Assembly: GCF_019059575.1 (NCBI RefSeq)
Contig: NW_024881729.1
Coordinates: forward strand, 544,406 to 608,405
Direction: 5' to 3'
DNA: 64,000 nucleotides
Source of the DNA: Amphibalanus amphitrite
Lineage: Eukaryota
Shown: positions 3,343 to 50,436 of the stretch, one piece after another
Layout of the letters: each line of letters begins with the position of its first letter
How positions within the stretch are numbered: position 1 is the stretch's first letter
The notes under the pieces: model-generated
Database searches by the model: none
What the model was told of the DNA's origin: nothing
The model's input: the letters and a program-made list of their open reading frames with translations, nothing else
Position numbers and translations under genes: made by a program

Positions 3343-3551
3343 GTGGGTCTAGATTGTAGAGAGTGAGCGAGGGAGGGCGTGGGTACCGGAGGACAGAGCA
3401 GTACTGAGGTCGTCAGGTAGTTAGAGGGAAGGGAAAGAAGAGAACGAGAGGGAAACACTACACGTCGCGAATGTTAATGATATCGCACATCGGCATGTTT
3501 TGCCTGATGATTCTTCATTAGTTGACATAATCCGTGTTTGTCTGTTTACAG

Positions 3552-6500
3552 GTATAAGGCGGAGTTGAAACGGCTCCAGACTGCCTTTGATGACGCCACC
3601 AACTTACAACGAAAGACAATGAAGAAGAAGCGCAGCCCAAAGCCGGAGTCTGATAACTCAAAGCCTTCGGGGCCCGGCCGCAAACCAGGCGAGAAGCGAC
3701 CAAAGCACTCGCATCCTCCAAGCGGCGGCTCAGAGCGGAGCTCTGCGCCTCCAGCCGCCCATCAGACCGCTCATCAGACGACCCGGCCTACCAGCCCGAA
3801 ACACCGGCTTCAGAACGGTGGGACCCCGCCGGCGGCTGCGGCGGCGACCTCTACGCCCGCTGCCACTCCTCTCGCCGCGCCGGCCAGGGACCCTGCTGCA
3901 GCCAGTCCTGCCGTCACCTCTGCCTCGAGCGCCGTGCCCTCTGCGCCGGCGACCGCGGCGCCACCTCCTGCTGCAGCCGTACCTCCGGTGGAAACTCCGG
4001 CGGTGACGTCAGGGTTTCAGCTGGAGCTGGAGAAACTGCGGCAGGGGATGAGCAGTTCGGCTCAGCGTTCTCATGAGCAGCGGCAGCAGGAGGCGGCTGC
4101 CGCTGCTAATGCCTCCGCCGCCGCTGCCGCTGCTAACGCCTCCTCTGCCGCTTCCGCCGCTACTCCCGCTGATCGGTCGCCACCGCGCCGCGCCAGTCTC
4201 AGTGGCGCTGGCGGACCGCCGCTGCTGCCGTCTCCAGAGCAGCTGCGGGCTGCCGAGCCTCGCGCGCCGGCCGCGCCGCAGCAGCCGGCAGCCGACCGTC
4301 ACCACAGCCCCAAGAAGATCCATCTGTACGGCAGGTCTCAGAGCCAGCCGACGGCTGCGGCCGGGGTCGAGCCGGCGGACGACGAGGCTGCGACAGCAGC
4401 CGCTGCTGCCACCGCTGCAGCGGAGGCAGAGAAGAAGAAACGCTTCCGGGAGATCAACGAAGCCGAGATGAACGACGCGGTGGCTTCCATCATGGGTGGC
4501 AGCGACGCAGACTTCTCGCTGTGTGTGAGCCCCGAGCCGACGGTGAGCCGGCGACGCACCAGCTCAGAGTCCGGCACTCCGACCACGGCTGCGGCCGACC
4601 TGTCTGTGCGCCGGCCGAGCACGGACAGCCTTACGGAGCGGCTGGCTGCGCTGGACGGCGCGGGGGACGGCCGTGTGTCAGCACCCTGGGAGGAGGAGGT
4701 GATAGGGGGACGGACTGTCGGGGGCGACCGCGGCGGCTCGGTGATCAGCAGAGGCGGCGGGGAGGACAGTGGTGTCAGGGACGAGGCGCCCGAGCGGGCA
4801 CGGACAGCCAGTGCGGACAGTGTGGGCGCGGCCGCGATGGATGCAATCCTCAGCGGTCGGCAGGCGAGCACGGACAGTATCACAAACAGTTTCTTCTCGC
4901 CGCTGACGGACGGGGAGCGGCGCCCCAGTGGTGAGTGCTGGTCGGAGCCGGCCGAGACCGCCAGAGCCGGCCGGCGCTCCAGTCTGACGGACGGACGGGG
5001 CGGCGGAGACTCCCGCCGGCCGCCACCGGCGCCAGAGCCGCCCGCCGAGCCGCCGCCCCCGCCCCCGCCCCCGCCTCAGCCGCCGCCCGAGCCGCCCGCC
5101 GACCAGGGTCTGGACCTGTCCGGCGGCGGCGGCCAGCTAAACGAGGAGCTCGACTGTGTGATCAAGGACCTGATGAGCTTCAACCAGCTGAAGGAGGCGG
5201 CCTCTCCGCCGGCACGCAGCAGCATCCTTCAGCTGGCGGCGCGCCAGGCGGACATTTTCTCACCGGAGGGTACGTCAGCAGGCTCGCCGTTCAGTGCCAA
5301 CCATTCGTCACCGTTCTCGCCGGAGATGCAACCAGTGTCACCGGCGCGATCTGTGGCCACCAATCTGCAGAGTGGGTTCGCGCCGTCCCGCTCGGCGGTT
5401 CTGGCGGCGTTTGAGGGCGGCTCGGCGCCACAGCAGCCGACCCGTCAGCAGCCGCAGCAGCAGCAGCCGGCTGTGTCCCGCTCAGCCTTCAGTCCGGACC
5501 CGTACGGCGGCGGACACCGGCCGGGTGGTGGTGGCGCCCGCGCAGAGCCGGCGCCCCGCTCTAGGATCGAGCAGGCTGAGGGTCTGATGGCGCACTTTGC
5601 GCCGCGCGCGGACCCGGCGCCGCCGCCGCCCCCCAACCCGCCATCACCGGCTTCGCCACACCACCGCCAGCCGGTGTTCGCGCAGCACGGCGTGGGCCGC
5701 GCGGACCCCCAGCTGACGGGTGGGTTCGGCTCGAGACATGAGCAGGCGGTCAGCCAACAAAGCGGGCGGCGGGACTCCACATTCAGCCAGCCCAGCCCCA
5801 GGCAAGAACCGCATTTCAACCAGCCCAGTCCGAGGCAAGAACCTCATTTCAGCCAGCCGAGCCCGCGACAAGAACCGCATTTCAGTCAGCCGAGCCCACG
5901 GCAGGAGACACACTTCAGCCAGCCCAGTGCACGGCAGGAGTCGCATTTTAGCCAGCCCAGTGCTCGCCAAGAGACGCACTTCAGCCATCGTAGTCCGCGG
6001 CAAGAGCCGCAGCTCATTCAGAGGAGTCCGCGGCAAGAACCTCATGCGGGTCATCCGAGTCCACGGCAGGAGTCCTACATGAACCAGCCCAGTCCCCGCC
6101 AGGATCCCCACTTGAATCACCCGAGTCCCCGGCAAGATCATCATTTGAACCATCCCAGTCCCCGTCAGGATTCCCATATGAATCATCCTAGTCCCCGCCA
6201 GGACCATCATTTGAATCATCCTAGTCCTCGCCAAGATCATCATTTGAATCACCCCAGCCCTCGGCAGGATTCCCATTTGAATCACTCCAGTCCTCGGCAG
6301 GAGTCCCACCTTTCTCACCAGGGACTCCGCCAGGATCCCCATCTCACCCACCAGAGCTCCCGTCAGGACTCCCACCTGCTCTCTCACCAGAGTCCCCGTC
6401 AGGAGAGTCGCCTTTCCCGCTCGGACTCCCAGCTCTCACATGGCTCTCCACGGCAGGAGCCGCCACTGGGACTCAGCTCTCGGCGGGACTCCTTCGGTCA

Positions 6501-7033
6501 GTCGACTCTCCGCCCAGAGTCGCTCCCGAGTCAGTCCGGCGGCCGGCGTGACTCCCTGAGTCAGCCCACCTCCAGACATGAACCGGGCCTCGGTCATCTG
6601 TCGCGCGACCTCGGCTCGGCGTCGTCACGTCACGATCTACTCGGTCACGCCGTGTCGCGTCACGATTCGGCCGCCTCCCGGACCGACCCCCTGGCCCAGC
6701 TGAGTCAGGCGGCTGGCCGCGCGCAGCCTCACTACCCTGGTGTGTCGGCTGGGTCGGCGGGCCGCCGCAGCTCGCTGCCTCGTCAGGACTCGGCCCCAAC
6801 CGGCGGTCAGTCGGGACTGTATGCGGCCGGGGAGCCGGCGAGAGATGTGCTCAGTGCAGCGCTGAGTGCGGCGCTCGGCGGCCGGCCGGCTGCTCCGGCA
6901 GCGGCGCGGCCGGCACCGCAGCAGCCGCAGCAGCGACGGATCGTGGACAGCTCCCCGTCCCCAGCCGCGCCAGAGAGGAGTAGTGCGGCAGCGAGTGCTG
7001 CTCAGCGGATGCCTTCGTACTACACTGCGGACG
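3552..7033 (+). CDS. Pro/Ala/Ser-rich protein, giant exon 2 (about 1160 codons)
   Basis: TTTACAG acceptor at 3551. The 1180-aa frame is uninterrupted and ends at the GAC G|GTGAGT donor at 7034. It contains poly-Pro/Ala tracts and an 11-aa repeat array. Confidence 0.65.
5784..6440 (+). repeat. About 20 tandem in-frame 33-nt (11-aa) repeats, PSPRQ(E/D)xH(F/L)(S/N)Q, within exon 2
   Basis: Directly visible periodic translation: SQPSPRQEPHF, NQPSPRQEPHF ... NHPSPRQDHHL. Confidence 0.9.
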
Positions 7034-7341
7034 GTGAGTTGGCCCGCTGGAGTGTCAGACGAGGGAGGGCAATGACATAAACACGTCAACACATTGCTTC
7101 GGTCACGGTCATGAGACATGTGGCAGGCGCATATCTCCCGCTCCATGCTTTGGAGATAGGTTGTTATTTCAATGCGACGAGCCTTGCTACATGACATTTT
7201 TGAACCAATATGCTGCACTTAAGACGCTTTTTGTCTATGGTTCTCACTGATCGGCTTTCTTACTCCGTATACGCTCGACGATAGCGGCCAATCTAACGTC
7301 CTCCGTCTTCCCACCTGACGTTACCCGTCTCTCCTCCGCAG

Positions 7342-21779: not shown

Positions 21780-24700
21780 TCGGTAAAGCTGGCGTCACCG
21801 TCGGCGGTAGGTAGGTAGGTTATGTTGTGGGTTCAGTAGGTGGAACTATGGTCATGAGTACCCAAATATAGGAACGTTCCCATTTTTGGGAACGGAGTTC
21901 CCAAATATGGGAACGGGCGTTCCCATTTATGAGAACGGAAGTTAATTTTTCGGCCGTTCGCCCACTAAAACTCATTAGTGCATCACGTCTCAAAAAAGTG
22001 CACGCTAATTTAAGTATCTACTAAGTCGATTCCAGGACAAATCTTCGTATGGCATTTCTTCGTCGCGCAATTCTTCGTCCGCATTTCTTCGTCCGCAAAT
22101 CTTCGTCGGCGCATTTATTCGTGTCGCATAACTTCGTCTCGCATTTCTTAGTAAGCGCAAATATTCGTAGCGCATTTTTTCGTATCCGCATTTCTTCGTA
22201 CGCGCATTTCTTCGTCAAGCATTTTTTCGTCCACGCATTTCTTCGTCTACGCAAATCTTCGTCCGCATTTCTTCGTCCACGCAAATCTTCGTCTGCGCAT
22301 ATCTTCGTCCGCAAATCTTCGTCCCCGCAAATCTTCGTCCGCAAATCTTCGTCCACATTTTTTCGTCCACGCATTTCTTCGTCTACGCAAATCTTCGTCC
22401 GCATTTCTTCGTCCACGCAAATCTTCGTCCCGGCAAATCTTCGTCCGCAAATCTTCGTCCGCAAAACTTCGTCCGCAAATCTTCGTCTGCAAATCTTCGT
22501 CCGCATTTTTCGTCCACGCATTTCTTCGTCCACGCAAATCTTCGTCCGCAAATCTTTGTCTGCGCATATTTTCGTCCGCAAACCTTTGTCTCCGCTATCT
22601 TCGTCTCCGCAAACATTCGTCCACAAATGTGGTTCAATAAAACCATGAAGAAATATCAGACCATCAAGTGATTGACGAATTTAATGCATGGAATGGATGA
22701 TCGAAACTTTTGAAGTCAGGTAGATGAGGTCTGTCAGGTGAAGCTATTGTATTTGGGAGCCGAGAATTGAAACATTCCATATCATTTGTGTCCCGGACAT
22801 TCTTTTTTCGCGGTCGATGAATGACAATACAATCTCTTGTACCCTCGCCGGCATAGGCGGCGGAACGGGGAGGGCACCGGGGCACCGTTCCCCTCTTTAA
22901 TTTGGCCTTTTAACAGTAGCCCTATGGGCGTTGCATGGAAAGAATGGGACTAAAAGTCGGCAGTGCCAAGCCCCCCCCCCCCCCTAATTGAATGTGTTCC
23001 GCCGCTACTGCTCGCCGGACCTATTTGTTTTCTACATATACGCCGGCCGAGGGGGGGGGGGCGGGCACGACCCCCCCCCCCTTCCCCCCATCGCCGTTTC
23101 GCCACTGGTGGAGCTAGCGCGTCGCGGAAAAAAACGAGCGTGTGCGCCGTTACGAGACGCAGAGATTAATACCCGATTTTAAGGCCTTCTAGGTCAGGGG
23201 TCGGCTTACGGCCCGCGGGCCGGATCCGGCCAGGAGGGTGACGGTTCGATCCGGCCCGCGACCATCTGACGTCCGGCCCGCGGCTGGTATCATCGACTTA
23301 CATCGTGTTCCGGCCCGCGGTTCCTTCAGAAATCGACTCCGATATAAAAGTGACTTAAATGTGCTTTGGCACAATAGTTCTTCCTTCGCACACTTCATGA
23401 GTTTATAAACACCATTTGCGGGTGTTTTTGTCTAATTCTACTTCTAGACAAAACTTGCGCGGGCCGGACGTCAGATGGTCGCGGGCCGGATCCAACCGTC
23501 ACCCTCCTGGCCGGATCCGGCCCGCGGGCTGTAAGCCGACCCCTGACCTAGAAGGCCTTAAAATCGGGTATTAACCTCTGCGTCTCGTAACGGCGCACAC
23601 GCTCGTTTTTTCCGCGACGCGCTAGCTCCACCAGTGGCGAAACGGCGATGGGGGGGGGGGGGGTCGTACCCGCCCCCCTCGGCCGGCGTATATGTAGAAA
23701 ACAAATAGGTCCGGCGAGCAGTAGCGGCGGAACACATTCAATTAGGGGGGGGGGGGGCACGGCACTGCCGACTTTTAGTCCCATTCTTTCCATGCAACGC
23801 CCATAGGGCTACTGTTAAAAGGCCAAAATTAAAGAGGGGAACGGTGCCCCGGTGCCCTCCCCGTTCCGCCGCCTATGCCGGCGAGGGTACAAGAGATTGT
23901 ATTGTCATTCATCGACCGCGAAAAAAGAATGTCCGGGACACATGATATGGAATGTTTCAATTCTCGGCTCCCAAATACAATAGCTTCACCGGACAGACCC
24001 CATCTACCTGACTTCAAAAGTTTCGATCATCCATTCCATGCATTAAATTCGTCAATCACTTGATGGTCTGATATTTCTTCATGGTTTTATTGAACCACAT
24101 TTGTGGACGAATGTTTGCGGAGACGAAGATAGCGGAGACAAAGGTTTGCGGACGAAAATATGCGCAGACAAAGATTTGCGGACGAAGATTTGCGTGGACG
24201 AAGAAATGCGTGGACGAAAAATGCGGACGAAGATTTGCGGACGAAGATTTGCGGACGAAGTTTGGCGGACGAAGATTTGCGGACGAAGATTTGCCGGGAC
24301 GAAGATTTGCTGGACGAAGAAATGCGGACGAAGATTTGCGTAGACGAAGAAATGCGTGGACGAAAAAATGCGGACGAAGATTTGCGGACGAAGATTTGCG
24401 GGGACGAAGATTTGCGGACGAAGATATGCGCAGACGAAGATTTGCGTGGACGAAGAAATGCGGACGAAGATTTGCGTAGACGAAGAAATGCGTGGACGAA
24501 AAAATGCTTGACGAAGAAATGCGCGTACGAAGAAATGCGGATACGAAAAAATGCGCTACGAATATTTGCGCTTACGAAGAAATGCGAGACGAAGTTATGC
24601 GACACGAATAAATGCGCCGACGAAGATTTGCGGACGAAGAAATGCGGACGAGGAATTGCGCGACGAAGAATTGCCATACGAAGATTTGTCCGGTTACGTA

Positions 24701-26600
24701 CTAAGTCTCTATAAAATTATCTTTAATCTGACCGTTGCACAAGGAAATTGACCGTCGAATGATATTTTTAATGATTTTTTGAAATGACGGAATGGTGAAA
24801 ACATGGGTTATACTACATTTAACTTGCAATTTTAAGGAAAATGAAGCGTTTTTTACATTTTGAGGTCAAGTACAATAATTTTCGCCTGGTTATGAAGTTT
24901 CATACTAGCGACACCAGATGCTGACATATGCAAGCGAACACGCGGACAGTCCCGAGGTAATATTGTTGACTTTTGGTGTCGGGGCGCACGACCGCGTGGA
25001 ACGTCAGTGATTTTACCGAACTACTGTTGTAAACTCGGTTTCAGTGGTTTAAAATTATTCAGCTGTATTTTATCATCCCGGAAAGACATATTTTATTTGG
25101 ATGCTAGCTGTTAAAGGGACCCTCCCACCTTTAAAAAAGTTTATGAATTGGCATGAAAGTGATGTCGCTCGGTTCAGAAAGAGCGAAAACGAATATCTAC
25201 CAAATTTCACCGAAAAATATTCACCGGTTTTGAAGATATTAGACTTTTACTTTTGTTTACTTTTTGGGATCTCCGCTGTTCCTAGCGACTTTATTTAAAA
25301 GTGCGGCATTTGTTGCGCGCAACGCAGCATATACCACCGCGTGCTACAAAACGTTTTAGTCAAACATTTAACGGACGTTCGAAAGCCTGATGACGTCATC
25401 AGATTTAAGTGCCTATACCAATACATTGTGGCACTTATTTGCACAGATGTCAAAATCAAACTCAAATTTCTTTGCGATGAAGTAATTGCTGGAGAAACGG
25501 TTTTCACGGCACTGATTTTCAAAGAACGTCCATCAAGATGGCTATCTCAACTCAAATCTAATGTTAAGGTGGGACAGTCCCTTTAAGCGTTGTTTTATAA
25601 GGAGCGTCATGAGCGTGATTTTTGTCTTCCGTGTTTCTAAGCACGATCGTTTTGGGGGAATTTCTCTTATATAGGTCGCTTTGTGTGGCTTATTTATAAT
25701 TTTTATGCTGATCTCGATCATTCCTCGTGCCCATCCTACCAGGCCTTTTGCCACTTACACCCATCAAGAAAGGAAAAAACTAGATTTTCATTGGGACTAG
25801 GTGTTTTGAGGGTGTAACATATTCAGCGTTCCCATTTTTGGATACTTCCTTGTGCTCGTCAACTATCGGTGATAAACAGACAGGTGCTTGACATGTCTCC
25901 ACCCTCGGCGCGGACGGTGGATATAGGTATGGAAGACCTTGTTGAACATCGCTGAGCGTTGTGAACTACGTAATCCTGCAGAGGGGGGCGTGCCCGCTGC
26001 GAGATCGACGGGAATAAAAGCGCAGAAGACCGGGCGTAACATGCGACGGTCTTGCCGGAAAGGTCATCTGATGATTGTTGCGTTAACAATAATTTGCGGC
26101 GTTGGACGTGATGCTTGTTAATGAAAAGAGCCCCTGAAAGGCGTCGGTGAAATCGTTCCCAATTTTGGGTACGCCGTTCCCATAATAAGGAACGCTTGCA
26201 GCGCCAGTGTACGAGAGCGTTCCCAAATTTGGGCTCGCGGCCCGGATGATGGACTGCTTTAGAAATAGGGGAACGATTTGAAACTACGATGGGCCTTACA
26301 ATATCAAACTCTTTCCCAACAATATTGGGACAAATATCAGGCGGTTCACGATCGTTTTTTTTTTTTTTTGGACGTCATTTAACGGTTCTTTTTCTTGTTT
26401 TAAATAATGCCTACATGGCGTTCCCATATTTGGGTTTATCGTTCCCAAACATGGGAACGAAAATGCGTTCCCGAAAATGGGTACGCTTGACCATAGTTCC
26501 GCCTACTGGGTTTGTAGGTTGTAGGCTGGTTGGTTCAAAGTGTGTAGGCTGGTAGGTTGTAGGTAAGTAGGTAAGGCTAGGTCAGGTTAGATTATGTGTT
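21780..26600. mobile_element. Candidate larger element enclosing the foldback. Long inverted termini (about 21795-21960 versus 26400-26560) are built from palindromic GTTCCCAnnnnTGGGAAC motifs and carry (GTAGGT)n at the outer ends
   Basis: Left GGGTTCAGTAGGTGGAACTATGGTCATGAGTACCCAAATATAGGAACGTTCCCATTTTTGGGAACG.. matches the reverse complement of right ..CGTTCCCAAACATGGGAACG..GACCATAGTTCCGCCTACTGGGTTTG. More motif copies lie at 25831-25850 and 26140-26235. Confidence 0.4.
22038..24692. mobile_element. Foldback-type element: a 2.65-kb near-perfect palindrome whose arms begin with tandem arrays (about 600 bp) of a degenerate 14-18-bp unit (CTTCGTCCGCAAAT-like), followed by inner unique sequence and a second, smaller palindrome around the centre (about 23190-23560)
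   Basis: The left arm 22038-23390 is the reverse complement of the right arm 23410-24692. The track ORFs 22021..22626 and 24087..24677, and their antisense partners, are simply translations of the arrays. Confidence 0.7.
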
Positions 26601-26625: not shown

Positions 26626-27600
26626 AGCTGTTAGTGGTGATGGTGGGGCTCTGTCCTGGGGCCCTTACTCTTCCTGGTGTATATCAATATTAATAGTGTG
26701 GCGTCCACCCTCAAGTGCCAATACAAAATTTTCACTGACGACCTCAAGATTTACGCATGCGTGAATCATACACGACTGTCTGAGACGCCAGCGGTATCCC
26801 ACCAATGTGTCCAGGATGACATCAACTCACTCCACGACACTGCTCTATCTTGGGGTCTTCATATGAATGTCTCAAAATGTGCAGTCCTTAGTTTTTCTAG
26901 GAGGCGCAATAGCGATGCTCCAGCTTACTTCTTGAATGGCAGAGAAATCCCTCGGGCCAATTCAGCTAAAGATTTGGGAGTCACGGTCGATACTGATTTG
27001 AAATTTCACACCCATATTCAAAACGTGTGCCACAAAGCTGGCGGTCTTGCTCAGAACTTTCTCAGATCAACGGTAAGCCGCTCTCCGGAGTTTATGTTGT
27101 TTTTGCTCAAAACACACATCCGACCTATCTTAGACTATTGTTCAAGCCTTTGGAACACAGGTTACCTGCAGGACCTCCGGCTACTGGAAAGGGTGCAGCG
27201 ACGCTGGACTAAACGGATCTCTGGACTTGAAACTCTCAGTTATGCTAATCGTCTCCAGTCATTGCAATTGTACTCTGTCCAGGGCAGACTGAAGCGGGCC
27301 GATCTTCTCCTGTGCTGGAAAATCTTCCATGGACAGTCCTTCATCTCTCCAGATGATCTTTTCCTTACCACTCCCTTGAACCGCACCAGAGGCCATAGTT
27401 TCAAGATTCATCGCACACACGGTAACACGTCCACCAGACAACGTTTTTTCTCAGTGAGGGTGATTGATACGTGGAACTCGCTGCCAGATTATGTGGTGAA
27501 TGCCCAAAGTATACAGAACTTTAAAAAAATGTTGGATGCCTGCATTCCAGATGTACTGTTTTCTTACGTTGACTGAATCATGCCATGTTGTGACTATGTA
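26626..27600 (+). mobile_element. 5'-truncated LINE fragment (CR1/L2/RTE-like RT C-terminal half)
   Basis: ..LGPLLFLVYIN.., FTDDLKIY, KCAVLSF, LGVTVDTDLKF, LERVQRRWTKRISGL..SYANRL, and a C-terminal WNSLPDYVV..SIQNFKKMLD. Stop at 27576. Confidence 0.7.
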
Positions 27601-31864: not shown

Positions 31865-32301
31865 GTGAGAGCGGCGCCGCGCTGGGTCTTGCACTGGCGG
31901 CATGCTCACAAACAGTATTACAGCCATGGTGTGGGATTTTGGAAATTATAACTAGCTTCGCTATGTTTAACCATTCATAAACAATCAAGTACCCTCACAT
32001 ATTTCGCTTAGCTTGTAAAAATAATTTATTTTGACACTTGACAGTGGTCTGGTCCATATCAGCGACAATCTGTGCCTCTCGCTGATATGCCGTGCCCCCC
32101 CCCCCCCCCCCACACGCACCAACAGTCTTCCCCTCGCCCTCACAGGTAGTCGTTCCTCACAAGCACTGGCGTCGCTGGCTGGCCCGTGTGACTGTCTCCC
32201 CGCGTCTGACTATGCTCCCGCTGTCTCTGCAGGCGATCGTTCTGCAGAAGTACTGGCGTCGTTTGTTGGGCTGTGTGTCTCTCCCACAGACAGGCCCCAA
32301 T

Positions 32302-34073
32302 CCGACGACCAAATCCGACACCTCGGGACGAAGAAGGCGCCAGGACCGGACCGGGTATGCACCGAACACCTGCGGCACTTCGGACCGACGGCCTACCGGA
32401 CCCTTCTGGCACTCATCAACAGATCGTGGTCCAACCTCGAGACGCCCGCCTCATGGCGACGGGCGACCATCATCCCTATCTTTAAGGCCGGCAAAGACCC
32501 CAAACAAGTGGGCAGCTACCGCCCGATCGCGCTCACGAGTCACATCGCCAAGCTAGCGGAGCGGATGATCGCGGCCCGGACGACCTACCTCATCGAGCGA
32601 GACCGACTGGTGCCCCCCGAACAGGTCGGGTTCCGCCGCGGGAGGTCGGCGGAGGACAGTCTGGCCCGCTTGGTCCAAACGGTTCAAGATGGCTGGAATC
32701 GCCCCAAGCCGAGACGAGGCCCGGAGGATGGCGTGACGGCGGACCGCTTTGTCCTCCTGGCGTTCGACTTCTCCCGTGCCTATGACACGATCGATCACCG
32801 GATGTTGCACCTGAAGCTCCTCAAGCTCCTCCCCAGATGTCTCGCGACCTGGAAATTCCGGTTCCTTCGCGGCAGGCGGGCCCGCGTAGAGGTCAACGGC
32901 GCGCACAGCAGCGAGCGCGTGTTCCGCGCGGGCCTGCCGCAGGGCTCGGTCCTGGCACCGACCATCTACACGCTCTGGGCGGCGGACCTTATCGAGACCC
33001 TGCGGAACGCCTCGGACCGCACGGACGTCCTGATGTATGCGGACGACAGGGCCACACTGAGCGCTGGAGCCACCGTAGAGCTTGCGGTGGCTCGCGCCCA
33101 GAAGTCGGCCGACGCCCTGGCCCGATGGGCAAGGCACTGGAAGATGTCCATCGCCGGACAGAAGACCCAGGCGCTGCTGCTGACTCAGCGGAGCAGGGAC
33201 GAGCGCGGCGTGCAACTCCTGGCGAACGGCACGCAGGTCACCGGTGGCACCAGCCTACATCTTCTGGGGGTGACCTTCGACAGACTTCTACACTTTAAAG
33301 ACCACTGCGACTCTCTGCTGCGGCGGAAGGTCCGGCCGCGGACGGCACAGCTGCGGAGGATGACCGGCCGGGCCTGGGGTCTCCGCGAGGCGCAGCTCAG
33401 GACAGTCGCGAACGGGTATGTCCGGGGAGCCCTTGAATACGCAGCGGGTGCCTGGCTCCCGGCCGCGTCCCCGTCACACGTTCAGCTGGTGGAGCGCGAG
33501 CTGCTGGCGGCAGCCCGGGTGGTGACCGGATGCCCAAGGTCCACCCCCAGGGATCCCCTGCTGGCCGAGGCTGGCATCCCTTCAGCATGGTCCACCAGGA
33601 AGACGCTGGCCGCGCGAACGCTCTGCCGAGCGCTCGCCCTGCCGGAGGACGACCCTCTTCGCCGCGTCGCGGAGGCCGACCCACCCACTCGACTGCGGTC
33701 TACCACCGGCTGGCGACAACTGGGGCGATCGGCGCTGATCGAGGCGGGCGCCGAGGGAGTGACGGTGGAGCCGCGCCTCGAGGTTCCCCTCCTCCCGTGG
33801 ACAACCTGCCGCCCGATCGCCTTCAATCTGGACGTGGGACCCGGCGGTCGTCGAGCCTCCTCCAACGAGACGCGACGAGAGGCCGCGCGGCAGCACCTGG
33901 CGGCGCTCCCAGCCCAGGCCACGTGGATTTGGTCCGACGGCTCTGCGGACGCTGGGGTCAGGCGAGGCGAGGGGGCGGCGCCATCATCTTTACCGCGTCG
34001 GGGGAGACTCTCGAGGTTGAGGTGGTGGCGGGAGACCTCTGCTCCAGCACCCGTGCGGAGCTGTTCGCCCTGA
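32302..34073 (+). pseudogene. LINE RT-domain reading frame (frameshifted relative to the downstream RNase H/CCHC part at 33957-34801)
   Basis: The two overlapping track ORFs (680 aa and 423 aa) together cover RT, RNase H and the zinc finger. Confidence 0.6.
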
Positions 34074-34837
34074 GGGCGGCGCTGGAGCGGGTCCGGGATG
34101 AGCCGTCCCCCGCCCCGCTGGTGGCGTGCTCTGACTCACGAGCCGCCCTGAGCCTCCTCAGCGCGGGAGCGGCCGCCCAGACCTCCACTTTCGGCGCGGC
34201 GATCTGGAGGACGCTGCTGGACATTGCCGAGCGCCGGCAGGTGACCCTGCAGTGGGTCCCTGCTCACTGCGGGCTGGCGGAGAACGAGCGCGCTGACGCC
34301 CTGGCCAAGCAAGCGGCCACCCTGCCCCAGGGCGCCGTGCCCTCGGACGCTCGGCCCCTGACACGGGCAGTTCATCGGACGACCACACGTCAGTGGCGCG
34401 AAAACTGGCCCGACTCCTTTTTCAAGGCTATCTTCGGGAGCACCCTGCCGCTCCCCATCCCCGGAGAGGACCGAGAGGCCGCCATCTCGGTGCACCAGTG
34501 GAGGGTGGGCCACTGGGGCCGCTCGCTCCAATACCTGCACCGGATCGGCCGCCACCCCTCCGTGGCATGCCTGCAGTGCCCCGATAAGCGGTGCCCCACG
34601 GCGCTCTGCGCCGTGTGCCGGGAAGAGGCGGACGTGCCGGAGCACGTGTTGCTCCGCTGCCCGGCCCTCGCTGGCGCCCGCCTGCGGCTAACTGGCAGCA
34701 TTCACGTCGACCCGTCGCGGCTGCGGGACGCCGACCTGGTGGCTGCCTTGGAGGCCGGCTACCTTCGCCATAGGGAGCCTCTCGGCTATGGTCCTCCGTA
34801 AGGAGGTCCCAGGGGGAACAACAACAACAACAACAAT
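32302..34837 (+). mobile_element. 5'-truncated non-LTR retrotransposon (LINE) with RT, RNase H and a C-terminal CCHC; I/R1/LOA-type domain order; frameshifted
   Basis: RT motifs KAPGPD, FDFSRAYDTIDH and YADD. The RNase H block (TRAELFALRAALE) is in a different frame after a roughly 1-nt indel near 33960-33980. CCHC is CLQCPDKRCP..C..C. A (CAA)6 tail sits at 34819-34836. A 10-bp target-site duplication AGGCCCCAAT lies at 32292-32301 and 34838-34847. Confidence 0.75.
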
Positions 34838-39083: not shown

Positions 39084-39320
39084 TGTGGCTTGATAGTTTC
39101 CTCGCGTTGTGTCTTTTTCTTAATAAACTTAATGACTTAAATGAGAAACAACTAAGAACTTCAAATTCTCTGTCATTTCTGTATTTTCTTAACATTTTCA
39201 CTGATAAGCCATTTTTATGACTCACGCGTCCTCACTCTGGGGCACCTCTCAGCCACTCACATAAAATAAGTTCATTCACCCGCCACACTTTCAATAAAAA
39301 CAGTTCTTTTCTCATCAACA
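39084..39320 (-). repeat. BEL/Pao 3' LTR (237 bp)
   Basis: Differs at one position from the copy at 45052-45288. Confidence 0.9.
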
Positions 39321-39332
39321 TTTCCCCCCGAC
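39321..39332 (-). promoter_or_regulatory. Polypurine tract of the BEL/Pao element (minus strand TCGGGGGGAAA), immediately 5' of the 3' LTR
   Basis: Purine run abutting the TG start of the LTR on the element strand. Confidence 0.5.
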
Positions 39333-39404
39333 ACTGAATGAGCACGTCATTCAGAACACTACGTGCCGGAACATCGACCGGCCATTCATGAGCTCTCAGT
39401 TACT

Positions 39405-42400
39405 TCAGTTGTCTAGCTCCAGTCGCACGATCTTGGTGACCGGTCGTTTGTACACACCCTTCCGCGTGTTCACCTCCACGACGCGGACGAGGCCGTCCTG
39501 ACCGGGGAACGTTCTGGCGACTCTGCCCAGGGGCCACGAGCCTCGAGGCACCGATGAGTCTGCGATCAGCACCATCTCTCCTTCACGCAGATTGCGTGAC
39601 ATCTCCGTCCACTTCTGTCTTGTCTGAAGACTTGGTAAGTATTCTCTGATCCAGCGCCGCCAGAACTCTGTGTTCAGCTGCTGGAGTCGACGCCACCTTT
39701 TTCTGGCGTTCTCGGGCGTGTCAGCGTCTTCAGAGCAGATATCCAGCTGGGTGTGACCGAGCAGGAACGCTGCCGGGGTGAGCGGTGGCGCATCAGACGG
39801 GTCAGATGAGACCGCGGTCAGTGGCCTGGTGTTCAGAAGCGCCTCCGCGCGGCAGAACGCGGTCATCAGTTCTTCATCTGTCAGATGGGCGGCTTCTAAA
39901 GTTCTTCGTAGTGCCCGCTTCGCACTTTTTACCATCGCCTCGCAGCCACCATTGAAATGAGGCGCTCCCGGAGGAATGAACTTCCAGTCTATGTAGAAGT
40001 GAGCGGTTTGTCTCTTGATCACTTCTTGGTCCAGAGCTCCGACTAGCTTCCGTAGCTCGCGACTTGCTCCAACAAAATTCTTCCCGTTGTCGGAGATGAT
40101 CTCAGACGGCCTCCCTCTTCGAGCGATGAATCTCAGGAATGCTCGCAGAAAACTGTCAGTGTCGAGTCCGCAGGCCATCTCCAGGTGCACCGCTCTACTC
40201 TGTAAGCACAGGAAGACGCAGAGGTAGCGTTTCAGCCGAGTCTTCCCTCTTCCCTGTCTGGTCTCGAACGGTCCTGCGAAGTCCACCGCGCAGTGACTGA
40301 ACGCGCGGCAGGAATACATCACTTCAGCTCCAGTCTTCGGCGCCATCATCTGCTTCTCTGGCTTCTTGGATCTCTTGATGCACTCTGTACAAGATCTGAT
40401 GCATTTCTTGACTTCTTCTCTGGCACTTATCACCCAGAACCGCTGGCGAAGTTCCGATATGGTGTGCTCAACGCCGAGCTCGTGTTCACCCTGCTCATGC
40501 ACATGACGTACCAGGAGACGGGTCACTTGATGGCCCTTTGGGAGAAGCACTGGGTGCTTCACATCAAATGGCAAGTCGCTTCTCTGGAGGCGTCCGCCGA
40601 CTCGCAGTAGTCCATGGTCATCTACAATCGGACACAGTCTGCGGATGCTGCTGCTTTTGAAGACTTGACCCTGTTTGCTTTCACCGGACGGGACTGCGAC
40701 TTGTGCTTCCAGCTGTCTTCGCTCCTTGGCAAAACATTCCTGAGCTCGCAGGAGCCAGAATGTCTCTGCAGAAGACATCTCCCGCCTGTCCAGTGATGAT
40801 GATGTGCCGTCGTTGTGTTCATCTGGGCACTCTCCTCTTGTTAGTCTCTTCAGTTTCTCGATAAACCTTAGAACCCACGCCGTCACCCTGACCAGCCTCA
40901 TCCAGCTTGAGAAGTGACTTGGGTGTAGCCGGAGGTCATCTTGAGTTTCTTTGATCAGAGTGCTGTGTACTGTCTTCGTCTTCTTCATCTCGCTCCTGTC
41001 GAATGGCTCTGATTGTAGATCTCTTGGCATTGGCCAGTTTTCTCGCTCTTCCACAAGAAATGCAGGGCCCGACCACCACAGGTCACTGGACTTCAGAACT
41101 TCCAGTGTTACGCCTCTGCTGGGAAGATCTGCTGGGTTTTGATTTCCGGGAACATGCTGCCATTGCTCAGGATCTGTCACTTCCCGAATCTCTGATATCC
41201 GATGCGCCACGAACGACTGGAACTGCTTGACTTCATTTCTGATCCAACAGAGCACGTTGATGGAGTCAGACCAGAACAGCACATCTGATATCTGGATCCT
41301 GAATGCTGCACAGGCCTTCTTCGCCAGTCGCAGACCCAGGAGGGCAGCCATCAGCTCAAGACGAGGGATGCTGACCTTTCTAGAGCGTGGGGTGACTCTG
41401 ACTCTTGCTAGAGCCAATCTTGCGGCAACGCCATCTTCACTTGTGGTCACGACGTAGACTGCGGCTGCATATGCCTGCTCAGAGGCATCTGAGAAGGCGT
41501 GTAGCTTCTGAGCTGTAGCCTTGGAGAAGGGGTGGATGCATCGGGGCACTAATAAAGAGCTCACGCGCTCCAGCTCCGTCACCCATTCCGCCCACTTGCG
41601 CTTCATGTCGGCGGGCAGCTCATCGTCCCATTGAAGACCTCGGGACCAAGTTTCCTGGAATAGGATCTTGCTTCGGACGGTAAATGGACTCATCAAGCAT
41701 AGAGGATCGAAGATGGCTGCGAGCGTCTTGAGACAGATCCTCTTGGTAGGCTTTGGCGTCATGTTCTTCTGAATGGTAGCATTGCTGCTAATGCTCAGCT
41801 TGTCTTCATCCGCATTCCAAACGACTCCAAGTGCATTGGCACGAGTTTGAGGGCCATCTTCGATAGTGAAACTTGACTCTTTGGCTCGCTCTTCTTCTGG
41901 TATGCTGTCCGTCACTGAGCTGCTACTGCTTCTCCATTTTCTTATCTTCATGCCGGCCAACTGCATCAGCTCTGTGAGTTGCTTTCTGGCTTCCTTCGCT
42001 TCATCTTCACTTTCGAATGAGACGAGGGCATCGTCCATGTAGAACGAGTCCTTGATCGTGTTGGAAGCGAGAGGATATCGTGAAGCGTGCTGCTTGGCAT
42101 TCTCCTTCATCGCGAACTGGGCTGCAAATGGTGCTGCAGCGTTTCCGAACAGCCACCTTTGTGCTTCATAGATATCTGGCTCTCTTCCAGCTTCGCAGTT
42201 GCGCCAGAGCACACGATGGAACTTCTGATCACCATCGGGTAGCTTCACCTGGAGAAACATCTCCGCGACGTCTCCAGTCAGAGCGATCGCATGACGGCGA
42301 AATCCCAGCAGGACTTCTATCAGGTCGTTACAGATGGATGGTCCAGGATAGAGTTCATCGTTCAGACTTCTCCCTTCAAATTTTGCAGCTGCATCGTACA

Positions 42401-44963
42401 CTACCCGTATCTTCGTCGTGGCGCGATCTTCCTTTACTACCGGGAAGTGGGGCAAGAACCAGCCGTCTAAGGATGCAGCCTCTCTATCTTCAGGTACGAT
42501 CTTCTTAAGGTATCCTTTAGATACGTAATCTTCAAAATTCGCATTGTACTTTTCTAGAAGAGACCTGTCTTCATTCTTTATCAGGCTCTGCTCAGTTTTT
42601 CTTAATCGGCTCACAGCGTATCCGAAGTTTCCACTCAACTCGGGCTGATCACGACGCCAAGGTACTGCTACCTCATATCGCTCGCCGTCGTACTTGAGTG
42701 AGTCTTGTGCCTTCTTAAGTGCGGACTTTTCCTCATACGAGAGAATCTTCTCATTCTCGTTTCTCACTCCGAGTAGTTCCAAGTCGGTCATAGCATGGAT
42801 GGCGTCTATTTCATCCTGATTGTTCACTGATACGTGAGTCCGTAGCGTCTTGCTGAAGTTTTTCTTCTTCGCATCTTCCACAGGCCCGAAGGCTGTCCAG
42901 CCGAGCGGGGTTTTCACTCCCACAGGTTCATGTGCTTCGCCTTGTCTTGTCTCCAGAGGAAGGAACAGCGACGTCGTAGAAGCCGTCAGTCCGATCAGCA
43001 TATCGATCCCCTGTCTTCGTGAAACGTTGGGGAAAGATATGTTCTTCAGATGGTTCCACTTGCTCTTCGTCATGTTCCAGTCAATTTTGGCTGAAGCGCT
43101 GGAGAGGTCATTAATGACGTACACGCCAATGCTGGTCTTGAACGGGCCGATTGTGGAACACATTTCCACCTCCGACTTCTTCATGTTCACTTGACTGCTG
43201 CCTTCCACTGTTCCCAGCTCAAACTGCTCTGGAACACCCTGGAGACCCAGCTCCTTAGAAGCGGCGTCCGTCAAGAAACTGGCATCCGAGCATGGATCCA
43301 GCAGGGCGTTGACGATAAGAGATCGTCCATTCGCCTTCACCTTCACGGGAACTGTCTGAAAAACGACGCGGCCTGAGTTCTGAGTCGCTGAAGCAGCGGT
43401 CCGATGAGTTAGCTCCCCTTCATGCTGTTCCTGAACTGGCAGTCTGGCAGTAGTATGACTTTGTGTCATCGCAGGGGTAGAATCACCGCGAGTCGCGTGG
43501 AGAAGACTATGATGGCTGCCACCGCATCCTGCCACTTGACATCCTGGGAACTTCCTGCAGCTTAATCCACGATGAGTGCCAGCCAGACAGCGAAAACATA
43601 TTCGCTTCGTCTTGCAGTAGCTGTACCGGCTGCCGACTGTCCACTTCTGGAACAGTGGGCAATCTGGAAGTTGGTGTTCTTTCTCGCAATAGAGACAGCT
43701 TGATGCCCCATGTTGGCTCTGTCTCTCTGTCTTGGTACTCCAGGTCTTCTTCATTTTCCTGGGAGAGTTCGTCTCTTCCTTCTTCATTCGGGAGCTGCTT
43801 GACATTTCTAGAGCTTCTTGTTCGTATTGGGCTTCTTCTGTGAGCCAGGTGGCGAACATCTTCAGATTGTCCTTCGCTCTTTGTCCTTGGATCCATCTTC
43901 GGTAGTTCTTCAGAAATGTCACATGTAGCTTTTCTTTGACGAGGATGTAGTAGGCGGACACGTCGGCCAAATCGCCTGCTGAGCCATGCTCTTCAAGATT
44001 TGTCACCAGGCTTTGAACCCGATCAGCGAGTTCCTCCAAATCTCTCGTAGCGCCCGGACGGACTGGCCTGATGCTCCGAATCTCCTCCAGCTGATGCCTG
44101 ATCCGTCTGCTGACGCCGCCGTACTTGCGTTCCAGCTCTGCCATGGCCTTCGTGAACCCAATGTCTGACGGTCTGTACCTGTCTACTAGTTTCAGAGCGT
44201 CACCTGCGAGACAGTTCTTGAGTTGCATCATTTTAAATTTTCCAGGAACGTTTTCGATGGTTACAAAGGCGTCAAACGTAGCTCGCCAGTCCTCGTATCT
44301 GTTTGTCTCGCCTGTAAAGACTGGAAGCTGTGGTCTCTTCAGTCCGTAGTTCGCCCAGTCGACCTTCACTCTCTCGTTATCTCGTGGCGACCGAGTGCTG
44401 TGACGTCGACCTTCGACTTCAGGTGAGGCTGCTTGCTCTTCTGGTTGCTGAAGCGCATCAGTTTCTTCAGTGACTGACTGATGCGACTCCGTTTCGTGCC
44501 TCAGGGCCTTCGTCTCGTTGCTACGCTTGTCTAGAGCTGCAGAAACTACAGTTCTCACTGATTTATTTGCCAGCCGCAGAGTCTTGGATATTTCTCGCTG
44601 AATATCGTCGTATTCTTCCCACGGATCTTCATCCTCCTCTTGTCCACTAGACATCTTGTTGGCCATCTCTTCCACTATGTTCAACAACTCATCGCTTGCC
44701 TTGTCTAGCTCAGAACCTATCTGCGAGATCTGCGAGACAGTTAGCTCACTGGTTTCAATCAGTGAATGCAGTCTGTTCTGTCCATCGCGTAGATCCCGAA
44801 GTAGTCTCGACTTCTTTCTTCTTAAATTCACTTCAGTTGTCCTCACATGGCTTTCTGTAGAAGTGGTAGTTGACATTGTCCCTTCAGTTCCATCCGTTAC
44901 TTCTTCTTGATTCTGACTGGTTTCAGCTTCACCTTGCTGCGTCTTCTTGCGCCTGTTACCCAT
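39405..44963 (-). CDS. Gag-Pol polyprotein (1852 aa) of the BEL/Pao element
   Basis: Uninterrupted ORF with diagnostic motifs: PQLPVFTGE..W..F..F (Gag DUF1759), CLYCEKEHQLPDC, LLDPCSDASF (protease), FYMDDALV (RT), DASEQAYAAAVY (RNase H), and H..H..C..C plus DFAGP..E (integrase). Confidence 0.85.
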   Translation of the reverse strand: MGNRRKKTQQGEAETSQNQEEVTDGTEGTMSTTTSTESHVRTTEVNLRRKKSRLLRDLRDGQNRLHSLIETSELTVSQISQIGSELDKASDELLNIVEEMANKMSSGQEEDEDPWEEYDDIQREISKTLRLANKSVRTVVSAALDKRSNETKALRHETESHQSVTEETDALQQPEEQAASPEVEGRRHSTRSPRDNERVKVDWANYGLKRPQLPVFTGETNRYEDWRATFDAFVTIENVPGKFKMMQLKNCLAGDALKLVDRYRPSDIGFTKAMAELERKYGGVSRRIRHQLEEIRSIRPVRPGATRDLEELADRVQSLVTNLEEHGSAGDLADVSAYYILVKEKLHVTFLKNYRRWIQGQRAKDNLKMFATWLTEEAQYEQEALEMSSSSRMKKEETNSPRKMKKTWSTKTERQSQHGASSCLYCEKEHQLPDCPLFQKWTVGSRYSYCKTKRICFRCLAGTHRGLSCRKFPGCQVAGCGGSHHSLLHATRGDSTPAMTQSHTTARLPVQEQHEGELTHRTAASATQNSGRVVFQTVPVKVKANGRSLIVNALLDPCSDASFLTDAASKELGLQGVPEQFELGTVEGSSQVNMKKSEVEMCSTIGPFKTSIGVYVINDLSSASAKIDWNMTKSKWNHLKNISFPNVSRRQGIDMLIGLTASTTSLFLPLETRQGEAHEPVGVKTPLGWTAFGPVEDAKKKNFSKTLRTHVSVNNQDEIDAIHAMTDLELLGVRNENEKILSYEEKSALKKAQDSLKYDGERYEVAVPWRRDQPELSGNFGYAVSRLRKTEQSLIKNEDRSLLEKYNANFEDYVSKGYLKKIVPEDREAASLDGWFLPHFPVVKEDRATTKIRVVYDAAAKFEGRSLNDELYPGPSICNDLIEVLLGFRRHAIALTGDVAEMFLQVKLPDGDQKFHRVLWRNCEAGREPDIYEAQRWLFGNAAAPFAAQFAMKENAKQHASRYPLASNTIKDSFYMDDALVSFESEDEAKEARKQLTELMQLAGMKIRKWRSSSSSVTDSIPEEERAKESSFTIEDGPQTRANALGVVWNADEDKLSISSNATIQKNMTPKPTKRICLKTLAAIFDPLCLMSPFTVRSKILFQETWSRGLQWDDELPADMKRKWAEWVTELERVSSLLVPRCIHPFSKATAQKLHAFSDASEQAYAAAVYVVTTSEDGVAARLALARVRVTPRSRKVSIPRLELMAALLGLRLAKKACAAFRIQISDVLFWSDSINVLCWIRNEVKQFQSFVAHRISEIREVTDPEQWQHVPGNQNPADLPSRGVTLEVLKSSDLWWSGPAFLVEERENWPMPRDLQSEPFDRSEMKKTKTVHSTLIKETQDDLRLHPSHFSSWMRLVRVTAWVLRFIEKLKRLTRGECPDEHNDGTSSSLDRREMSSAETFWLLRAQECFAKERRQLEAQVAVPSGESKQGQVFKSSSIRRLCPIVDDHGLLRVGGRLQRSDLPFDVKHPVLLPKGHQVTRLLVRHVHEQGEHELGVEHTISELRQRFWVISAREEVKKCIRSCTECIKRSKKPEKQMMAPKTGAEVMYSCRAFSHCAVDFAGPFETRQGRGKTRLKRYLCVFLCLQSRAVHLEMACGLDTDSFLRAFLRFIARRGRPSEIISDNGKNFVGASRELRKLVGALDQEVIKRQTAHFYIDWKFIPPGAPHFNGGCEAMVKSAKRALRRTLEAAHLTDEELMTAFCRAEALLNTRPLTAVSSDPSDAPPLTPAAFLLGHTQLDICSEDADTPENARKRWRRLQQLNTEFWRRWIREYLPSLQTRQKWTEMSRNLREGEMVLIADSSVPRGSWPLGRVARTFPGQDGLVRVVEVNTRKGVYKRPVTKIVRLELDN

Positions 44964-45051
44964 ACTTAAATCTCGACTTAATATTACTTTAGAATTACAT
45001 TACGTTACCTAATATCGTAACTCCGAATATCTGGGTCACTTTGCACTAAAA

Positions 45052-45288
45052 TGTGGCTTGATAGTTTCCTCGCGTTGTGTCTTTTTCTTAATAAACTTAA
45101 TGACTTAAATGAGAAACAACTAAGAACTTTAAATTCTCTGTCATTTCTGTATTTTCTTAACATTTTCACTGATAAGCCATTTTTATGACTCACGCGTCCT
45201 CACTCTGGGGCACCTCTCAGCCACTCACATAAAATAAGTTCATTCACCCGCCACACTTTCAATAAAAACAGTTCTTTTCTCATCAACA
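45052..45288 (-). repeat. BEL/Pao 5' LTR (237 bp)
   Basis: Differs at one position from the copy at 39084-39320; followed by an 88-nt leader before the Gag ATG. Confidence 0.9.
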
Positions 45289-48644: not shown

Positions 48645-49070
48645 TTTGCAGTCTCCTTTTCAATTCTGAAACAAAAGTTAACATTCAGCTACTGGGCATT
48701 GACAGGTAAAAATATTATACAATTCTCTAAATGGGCATTTCACATTCAGTCAGACTGACTGTCAACTAGTTTATCATTTGTCCCATAGATTAGGTAGGTA
48801 TATTGGATTACAAAACATTTGATCCACCTTAGCCTGTGGTGGAACTTGGAGCCTGGCCATAATGACGATTCCAAAACAACCCCAGTTTCTTCAGTGTTAA
48901 ATCTAAATACCTACATGAATAGCATGTGACCTCAACAAGGCTGGCCTGGTACACAGGGCCTGGTTGGTTGGTCTATTGTTAGGGTGAGTACATGCAGAAG
49001 CCAGGTGATGAAAGTGAAGGCTTCTGCATGATAATGCAACCTTTAACACGATAAATTGGACATGAAGCTA

Positions 49071-50422
49071 CAGGGTGTCCCAGAATTACCCGGACATTTA
49101 TTTTCTGGCTAAAAGTACGATTACGCTCGATTCTAATGATATACAAGCATCATACTTTTATAAGATATCCCTAAGCTATCAAGCTTGGGGACTGTGTGCT
49201 TTTGGTGGCCGGTAACAACTCGAGTCAAGTATTATCTAGAGTCAAGTAAGAGTAGTCCTTTTCCGTTTTCAGCTTAAGCCACTTATAGGCAACGATGGTC
49301 AATCAACTCCCGTTTTCAACTTTGTAAACGGACTTTCGGCATGGTTTTCGCTGGAGAGCTTCAGCAGCTCATCTGCAAGCAGTTAGGATTGAGCAAAGCG
49401 CAATTATATCAGCTAACGAAGCCAGAGAGAGCAAGAGATAAACCTGATTGACAAGCTTGGGCTCGGCCATAAAGGGCCATGCACCAGTTGTCAAACGGGT
49501 GGTTGCTTGTCATGGACAACAAACGTCACTGATCTAGCTAAAAACTAGCAAAACGATAGATCAGGATTATCTAAAGAACATCAGTCTACTTTCCACCACT
49601 ATCTTCGCAAAATTTTGGAATTTGGGGTCCCTCGCCTGAAAAAGATGCGAAAACTACGGGAAAAGCAGCGAAAATCACTACAATTCATCCCAAAAATATA
49701 ACATATACAACAAAAATTATATTGAAGCACACTTTGTGGTCTAACGAAGGTATTCTGTCATTTGAACCGCCCGAAAAAGGCTTGTGTGAACGTCAGATGG
49801 CTACAACGCCCCAACAGCAGAGACGGCCAGGCACCCGTCGAAAATCAAATTGTGAGACATTTTGAGCCACCGTGCACTCATTGGGCTTGATATGATGGCC
49901 CAACGACAGCCGTTAGCACAAAGTGCTACTGCGGTAATATTCTACCAGTAAAAAAACTGGATGCCGTAAACCAAATGGCCATGAACGGGTTTGTTTTGGA
50001 AATCAAATCTATTGGAAGCCAAAGGTCCCGCCATGTTCAGACATGGAGCTTCTCCACTTCAGATGTAAAAAACGCGGCAAAAGTGGTGTAGGCAGCAATT
50101 TTTGTTTTGGGGGATAAAGCCTTATGACCCGGGAACACTTTGATGTTAAGTTTATCTTATATGATCGTATTATCCTCCGGCAACAGGTCAAAGAAAACAG
50201 GCCTTCGCCCAGTTTCGGGAGAGCCGTAAAACAACTGAGACCAGCAATGGCTGGCATTTTCAATCATTGTCGGCTGATCTTGTAACAAGCGTATCTATTG
50301 CATGTGCTATTTCACAGCCACCCTAGTTGACTATATAGGACGACAAAAAGAAAAAAGCGCAATCATGTTTGCCTTATTTTATACGCTAATTAACAATGTC
50401 CGGGTAATTCTGGGACACCCTG
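49071..50422. mobile_element. Tc1/mariner-like nonautonomous element, copy 1 (1.35 kb), with a TA target-site duplication
   Basis: Perfect 28-bp TIR CAGGGTGTCCCAGAATTACCCGGACATT at both ends. Flanked by TA on both sides; no long ORF. Confidence 0.6.
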
Positions 50423-50436
50423 TAGATGACAATGTA

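Follow-up and report, generated by a model that had tools for sequence, protein, structure and literature searches.

The 64,000-nucleotide stretch of the Amphibalanus amphitrite genome analysed here (assembly GCF_019059575.1, contig NW_024881729.1, positions 544,406 to 608,405 of the forward strand), hereafter called the window and numbered from its first letter, contains at 21834-26508 what is most probably (a probability of roughly 0.85) a single copy of a nonautonomous class II DNA transposon with recent activity, that is, a cut-and-paste element with terminal inverted repeats, of about 1523 bp in its native state. A first-pass annotation of the same DNA had proposed a large element with long, palindrome-rich inverted termini enclosing a foldback, and had seen in it either a novel nonautonomous DNA transposon family or a cluster of regulatory palindromes. 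Our results are in agreement with the former, as copies recur with sharp ends, a 4-bp target-site duplication and no coding capacity. The family itself is new, whereas the kind of element is already known and an ordinary one, and the word "novel" therefore holds at the family level only. The element, called outer element below, and its ends are as follows.

21834-26508, plus strand: whole outer element, 4675 bp, of which 1523 bp are native sequence and the rest the two insertions nested in it, with the target bases that they duplicated.
21834-21915, plus strand: left terminal inverted repeat, about 82 nt, with the tip CAGTAGGTGGAACTATGGTCA followed by palindromic units (end-to-end alignment and blastn).
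26419-26508, minus strand: right terminal inverted repeat, about 90 nt, with 8 nt inserted after unit 1 and before unit 2 when compared to the left end.
21830-21833: left target-site duplication of the window copy, GGTT, its 4-bp length being also given by an empty site and a flank logo.
26509-26512: right target-site duplication of the window copy, GGTT, with the same two further indications of its length.
Terminus of the outer element for comparison with other families: CAGTAGGYGGAAC.

The outer element begins with CAGTAGGTGGAACTATGGTCA, and its other end is the reverse complement of this sequence. Its tips, CAGTAGG...CCTACTG, are identical in all copies; similarity ends exactly there, and the flanks diverge at once outside. 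The inverted repeat, which begins CAGTAGG(T/C)GGAACTATGGTCA at 21834 on the left and at 26508 on the right, is about 76% identical between the two ends over about 91-93 nt (blastn). Such inverted repeats, whose tips are well defined and the same at all ends examined, are what is expected of a class II terminal-inverted-repeat transposon. The inverted termini announced earlier at 21795-21960 and 26400-26560 are thus real but narrower, as 21834-21915 pairs with 26508-26419. The host flanks at 21795-21833 and 26509-26560 are G/T-rich, of low complexity and in direct orientation, rather than inverse complements of each other, and other copies carry unrelated sequence in their place. The window copy is inserted within a G/T-rich low-complexity tract (21795-21833 and 26509-26575), which is (GGTA)n- or GTAGGTTGTAGGCTGG-like with a 23-bp period. 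Once both nested insertions are taken out of the outer element, 1523 bp are left. A miniature inverted-repeat transposable element (MITE) is by definition under 800 bp (PMC5199201); as the family consensus of 1526 bp exceeds this limit, "nonautonomous element" is the better name.

Other copies were traced through open reading frames (ORFs) that chance to read outward over both inverted repeats, and whose translations were used as queries. These queries led to 13 spurious "proteins" (5 + 8), identical up to ...TIVPPT and unrelated beyond. Copies were found on 12 contigs (L027-L038) from ENA SUMM22-1 and KIMD21-1, from Tara Oceans (including PRJEB4352) and from Logan marine metagenomes. Five of these contigs (L027, L033, L034, L035 and L036) contain complete, uninterrupted copies of 1519-1522 bp, and seven more contain partial ones. 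When the window element is brought to a comparable form, by removal of 22028-24707 and 25115-25586, the five complete copies are 97-98% identical to it from end to end. The copies are 98-99.5% identical to the 1526-bp consensus, except for the partial copy of L037 (95%). At least 10 distinct insertion sites, with at least 10 distinct flanks per side, are represented across several independent marine metagenome assemblies, and the recurrence of the termini elsewhere with defined ends, on which the first-pass annotation had made its proposal depend, is thus established. The copies are many and dispersed, and the outer element is shown to be mobile and to have been recently active. Exact scans of bacterial and archaeal genomes and of viral contigs did not return the tip, nothing else within the window resembles the outer element or the pieces nested in it, and a search of the whole window against Rfam gave no match.

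The target site was defined in two ways, in addition to the window copy itself. First, a logo was built from 18 distinct flanks, read outward from the element ends. A stands at position 1 in 15/18 flanks (p=1e-6), A or T at position 2 in 15/18, A at position 3 in 11/18 and T at position 4 in 14/18 (p=4e-6), while positions 5-12 are without bias; the commonest tetranucleotide is ATAT (7/18). The footprint is symmetric and limited to 4 bp, as expected of a 4-bp palindromic target, AWWT. The window copy departs from AWWT in a complementary way, with G at position 1 on the right and C at the left-outward position 4, which is what a true duplication predicts. A duplication had been expected at 21780-21800 and 26560-26600; it is present, but directly beside the tips, as listed above. 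Second, when the outward ORF found on L034 was searched against a representative library, it returned L039 (paralogue, P0014), an uninterrupted paralogous empty site. The left flank of L034 aligns with L039 820-1553 and the right flank of L031 (reverse complement) with L039 612-823, and these two flanks overlap on L039 by exactly the 4 bp that adjoin the element (AAAA). The empty site reconstructed in this way aligns with L039 without any gap over the junction (943 nt, 85%), which proves the 4-bp duplication.

The same flanks bear on whether the outer element could be of the Tc1/mariner/pogo type, as its CAGT... tip might suggest, or a hAT element. CAGT and CAGTA tips are indeed common among Tc1 and pogo elements. 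However, none of the 18 ends has TA as its first two outward bases, and a shift by one base gives 7/18 only; as for hAT, no 8-bp duplication is seen (TGTGGGTT versus GGTTTGTA) and the empty site shows exactly 4 bp. TA and 8-bp duplications being excluded by the flanks and by the 4-bp empty site, both types were rejected, and we consider this possibility highly improbable. The TTAA-targeting families (piggyBac and Kolobok) were also rejected for the outer element, as its flanks are not TTAA.

Several observations weigh against the explanation given here, from the duplication to the superfamily and the role of the palindromes. The 4-mers found at the two ends differ in all five complete metagenome copies. 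No transposase, and no autonomous (longer) copy with these termini, was found among the retrieved copies. The single terminus of Sola1, the superfamily discussed below, that was compared, GGACCGTTTATTTTG, is without similarity to CAGTAGGTGGAAC of the outer element. Finally, palindromic sites are unusual for transposase binding and resemble the half-sites of the RFX X-box, and a host factor could be the one that binds them. For the first of these points an explanation can be offered. As the right flank present on L034 itself belongs to another copy, its alignment proves this contig to be a chimeric assembly across the repeat, and we assume that the mismatched 4-mers of the other four complete contigs likely have the same origin. 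This calls for caution with short-read metagenome assemblies, in which contigs that span a 1.5-kb repeat can join the flanks of different copies and mislead the reading of a duplication.

The length of the window copy is due to two nested pieces, each with a duplication of its own.

22028-24698: nested foldback element, 2671 bp, with inverted arms of about 1.25 kb that are 97-99% complementary and a 175-nt loop at 23283-23457.
22019-22027: left copy of the 9-bp target-site duplication of the foldback, TACTAAGTC.
24699-24707: right copy of the 9-bp target-site duplication of the foldback, TACTAAGTC.
25115-25582: nested MITE, 468 bp, with inverted ends AGGGACCCTCCCACC... / ...GGTGGGACAGTCCCT and TTAA at 25111-25114 and 25583-25586.

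The outer 600 bp or so of each foldback arm consist of 14-16-bp tandem subrepeats (CGCAAATCTTCGTC-like), with poly-G/C tracts inside. Foldback-type elements are recognised by long inverted arms that contain tandem subrepeats, together with a 9-bp duplication, and this piece has both. The foldback is missing in all 7 other copies that cover its site, in which the 9-mer or a close variant is present once and uninterrupted. The site of the nested MITE is empty in 10 other copies, with a single TTAA or TTTA. As their sites are empty in other copies, the foldback and the MITE are later, independent insertions and not parts of the outer element. The termini do bracket the foldback, as had been noted, but the latter was inserted secondarily, into a native element of 1.5 kb and not 4.7 kb. 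The same bracketing is what could speak for a single composite element of 4.7 kb, foldback included, moving as one unit. This idea, to which we give next to no credence, is refuted by the insertions' own duplications and by their empty sites in paralogues: the foldback is flanked by its own TACTAAGTC, which is single and intact in 7/7 other copies, the MITE is likewise missing from 10 copies, and no retrieved metagenome locus contains the foldback repeat.

The foldback resembles the Foldback (FB) elements of Drosophila in its very long inverted arms, outer tandem subrepeats, short loop, 9-bp duplication and lack of an ORF, a likeness of architecture. Drosophila FB elements make a 9-bp target-site duplication. 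The nested foldback differs from them by its marine animal host and by the single copy seen, as no second one is present in the window or among the retrieved metagenome loci. The nested MITE shows the TTAA duplication of piggyBac and Kolobok elements, which the outer element does not, and could belong to either of these or to another group that targets TTAA. Its family is also found in the flanks of L035 (about 119-432), L036 (1-53) and L033 (1-19), with 91% identity over 312-316 nt. As it is thus met in the flanks of 3 of about a dozen short contigs, this family must be very abundant in the genome.

The second feature of the locus is the regular arrangement of palindromes in its ends. The palindrome GTTCCCA-N4-TGGGAAC, singled out by the first-pass annotation, is real: it matches 5 times in the window with at most 1 mismatch, versus 0.00 expected. 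CGTTCCCA occurs 11 times in the 64 kb, all within 21875-26459, versus 1.95 expected, and the family consensus contains 21 half-sites with at most 1 mismatch, versus 3.4 in shuffled sequences (maximum 9). When up to 3/14 mismatches are allowed, 11 palindromic 18-mers are found in the window element and in the consensus alike. The extended form of the unit is (C)GTTCCCA-N4-TGGGAAC(G), and the inverted repeats carry 4 copies on the left and 3 on the right, as predicted (three or four per end). Four further units lie in the interior, all toward the right end, and account for the additional copies that had been placed at 25831 and 26140-26235. In the window, the units are the following.

21858-21936: four consecutive left 18-bp palindromes (21858-75, 21876-93, 21897-914 and 21919-36), putative transposase binding sites.
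25828-25845: isolated internal unit, GTTCCCATTTTTGGATAC.
26155-26236: three right-subterminal units (26155-72, 26176-93 and 26219-36), each with an intact GTTCCCA half and a degenerate other half.
26420-26484: three right terminal units (26420-37, 26441-58 and 26467-84), the last of which ends 24 nt from the tip.

In the consensus, they are located at 25-103 on the left (n=4), at 846 internally (n=1), at 1173-1254 in the right-subterminal part (n=3) and at 1438-1502 at the right end (n=3). The element tip itself is not palindromic, and the outermost unit lies 24 nt from it at both ends, in a mirrored way. Units are spaced by 18-26 bp overall, mostly 21-22; on the left, they start 18, 21 and 22 bp from one another, the fourth lying just past the portion that aligns with the right end. 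When left and right ends are aligned, the half-sites and their flanking C/G are kept, while the N4 centres and the spacers between units vary, a pattern that fits a constraint acting on the half-sites. The left end, folded as single-stranded DNA, forms hairpins (z = -5), an automatic result of the palindromes which is not used here as evidence.

Such sites are rare. Two adjacent palindromic sites are found in only 26 of 241 million metagenome records, none of them from the outer element family, and the motif is thus not the ubiquitous low-complexity repeat that would have counted against the proposal. Most of the 26 loci look unrelated, or like chance or operator-like sites of prokaryotes; one belongs to another MITE family. 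This MITE-like family of about 545 bp is represented by two copies that are 92% identical (L005 1-545 and L007 about 590-1140; Ga0314687_10192617 and Ga0115008_10067495). Its inverted ends begin with GGAGAATGGCG and contain 4-5 back-to-back GTTCCCA-N3-5-TGGGAAC palindromes. It shares its half-sites with the window element but has another tip and another interior.

The palindromes could alternatively form a host cis-regulatory cluster, as operators for a dimeric factor such as RFX, either at a locus that is not mobile or with sites that serve the transcription of host or transposon instead of binding a transposase. The half-sites of the outer element, GTTCCC and GGGAAC, are functional halves of the RFX X-box (GTTNCC-AT-GGNAAC), and GTTCCC-AT-GGGAAC would be a perfect X-box, from which the units differ only by 4 more central bases. 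In Caenorhabditis elegans, the X-boxes include GTTCCCATAGCAAC, GTACCCATGGCAAC and GTTTCTATGGGAAC, and the 14-bp X-box has a 2-nt centre (PMC3245922). The centre is however 6 nt in 11/11 units of the outer element, and the sites are found in transposon termini and not in promoters; this is a resemblance, not a membership. In the RFX consensus, the spacing of half-sites is 0-3 nt. Furthermore, it is the whole 1.5-kb unit that is found dispersed, with its sharp ends, its inverted termini and its target-site duplications, and the mirrored distance of 24 nt from the tips fits the recognition of ends. As dispersal with sharp ends and duplications identifies the locus as a transposon, a regulatory cluster, the other possibility left by the first-pass annotation, was rejected as the identity of the locus, and we regard the regulatory explanation as improbable.

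Within the identification as a transposon, the coding capacity and the superfamily have to be considered. In a clean copy, all ORFs are of 84 aa or less, and the internal ORFs gave no Pfam match above noise; the earlier remark that only short ORFs lie inside is thus correct, although those it placed at 25101-25586 belong to the separate, nested, TTAA-flanked MITE. As no copy encodes a protein, the element is nonautonomous.

By analogy, the superfamily that seems most likely is Sola1, with odds that are about even. The outer element displays a 4-bp duplication and a preference for AWWT targets, and it is this combination, as a reported Sola1 hallmark, that makes Sola1 the best guess. One passage of a published study describes a 4-bp AWWT/AWDT target as the hallmark of Sola1, also seen in Sola1-derived MITEs (PMC3845634, citing Bao et al. 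2009). The outer element resembles the Sola1_NA elements of Bombyx mori and Rhodnius prolixus in its 4-bp AWWT duplication, inverted repeats, homogeneous copies, lack of coding capacity and animal host. It differs from them by its terminus, unrelated to GGACCGTTTATTTTG, by its length (1.5 kb versus 200-700 bp for these MITEs), by inverted ends made of arrays of 18-bp palindromes, and in that no Sola1 transposase is linked to it.

The outer element could also be a nonautonomous cut-and-paste transposon of another superfamily, which could be Sola2/3, Ginger1/2, CMC-Chapaev, Academ or an undescribed one that recognises palindrome arrays. We hold this alternative to be a serious one, at somewhat less than even odds. 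It is favoured by the failure to recover a transposase and by the CAGTAGG tip, which is unlike the one Sola1 terminus compared. Repbase classes nonautonomous elements by duplication length and an 11-nt terminal match (PMC4455052), and no such match is found with this one Sola1 terminus. In addition, the use of the same half-sites by the unrelated L005/L007 MITE may point to a separate group whose members have a DNA-binding specificity in common. On the other hand, AWWT with a strict 4-bp footprint matches the reported Sola1 hallmark. Among the superfamilies cited, Ginger2 was rejected on its target: the same passage as above gives TATA as its preference (PMC3845634), whereas 0/18 flanks start with TATA and position 1 is A in 15/18. 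Nor does the outer element have the termini of Ginger. These are TGT...ACA in Ginger elements.

The architecture of the ends suggests how the transposon could be mobilised. An autonomous relative would provide, in trans, the transposase on which mobility depends, and the 18-20-bp palindromes would be the binding sites of this transposase, each occupied by a dimer or by DNA-binding domains with two-fold symmetry. With units about 21-22 bp apart, i.e., about two helical turns, from 24 nt inside the tip, several protomers could be placed on one face of the DNA, and protomers or dimers loaded in phase on both ends could then pair (synapse) them. The non-palindromic tip, CAGTAGGYGGAACTATGGTCA, would set polarity and the position of cleavage, the extra sites present on the right side only would make the two ends non-equivalent, and integration would take place by a 4-bp staggered cut at AWWT. 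Multiple subterminal transposase-binding repeats are known in the En/Spm-CACTA elements (12-bp TnpA motifs), in Ac/Ds (hexamers) and in Tc1-like elements of the inverted repeat/direct repeat (IR/DR) type. Like the outer element, all these carry repeated sites in or just inside their ends, in unequal number per end. The outer element differs from them in that its sites are themselves near-perfect palindromes, phased at about 21-22 bp, and in its duplication length and tip.

A literature search combining the half-sites with transposase returned no paper describing such a transposon. The phased palindrome arrays could mark an undescribed clade of transposons of marine eukaryotes, with a dimeric, possibly RFX-like winged-helix transposase domain, or the elements could recruit host RFX, for example for germline expression; we see this as speculative and rather unlikely. 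If such a clade existed, the L005/L007 family would be its second member.

For a young nonautonomous family of a marine animal, which is probably still mobilisable, the consensus, exact ends, duplication length and target logo are now given and should help genome annotation. From the three-layer nesting, in which the foldback and the TTAA MITE lie within the element, the order of the insertions in time can be read. The sole unusual feature of this otherwise ordinary element of an animal genome is the regular palindromic architecture of its ends, which offers a convenient way to look for the cognate transposase and to study its assembly on transposon ends.

The window as a whole is rich in transposons, with a BEL/Pao element, from which its metazoan origin was judged, and several reverse-transcriptase fragments. 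The former, at 39084-45288, is an apparently intact long terminal repeat (LTR) retrotransposon, with 237-bp LTRs (39084-39320 and 45052-45288) that are 100% identical and a single ORF of 1852 aa on the minus strand, containing Peptidase_A17, RVT_1, rve, DUF1759 and DUF5641 domains. Its identical LTRs and intact ORF suggest a very recent insertion. Directly to the right of the outer element, at 26677-27576, a 299-aa ORF that contains an FTDDLKIY motif but matches nothing in Pfam is a remnant of a non-LTR-type reverse transcriptase, and another such remnant, GC-rich (61-66%) and with RVT_1 and RNase H domains, is located at 32031-34801.

At 49069-51713, two units of about 1355 bp lie side by side; they are 75-88% identical, and each starts with TACAGGGTGTCCCAGAATT. 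The host repeat of the L034/L031 insertion (L039, with ends at 193-223 and 1523-1553) ends in a similar inverted TACAGGGTGTCCCATAAGTTC, and both may belong to a Tc1/mariner-like family (TA + CAGGGTG...). Finally, an open frame of 1180 aa at 3538-7080, in DNA of 60-70% GC, encodes a low-complexity, Pro/Ala/Ser-rich sequence with about 25 tandem SPRQ(E/D)xH(F/L)(S/N)xP repeats; its sole match is a weak, TFIIA-like one of low complexity, and it could represent a large host-gene exon.

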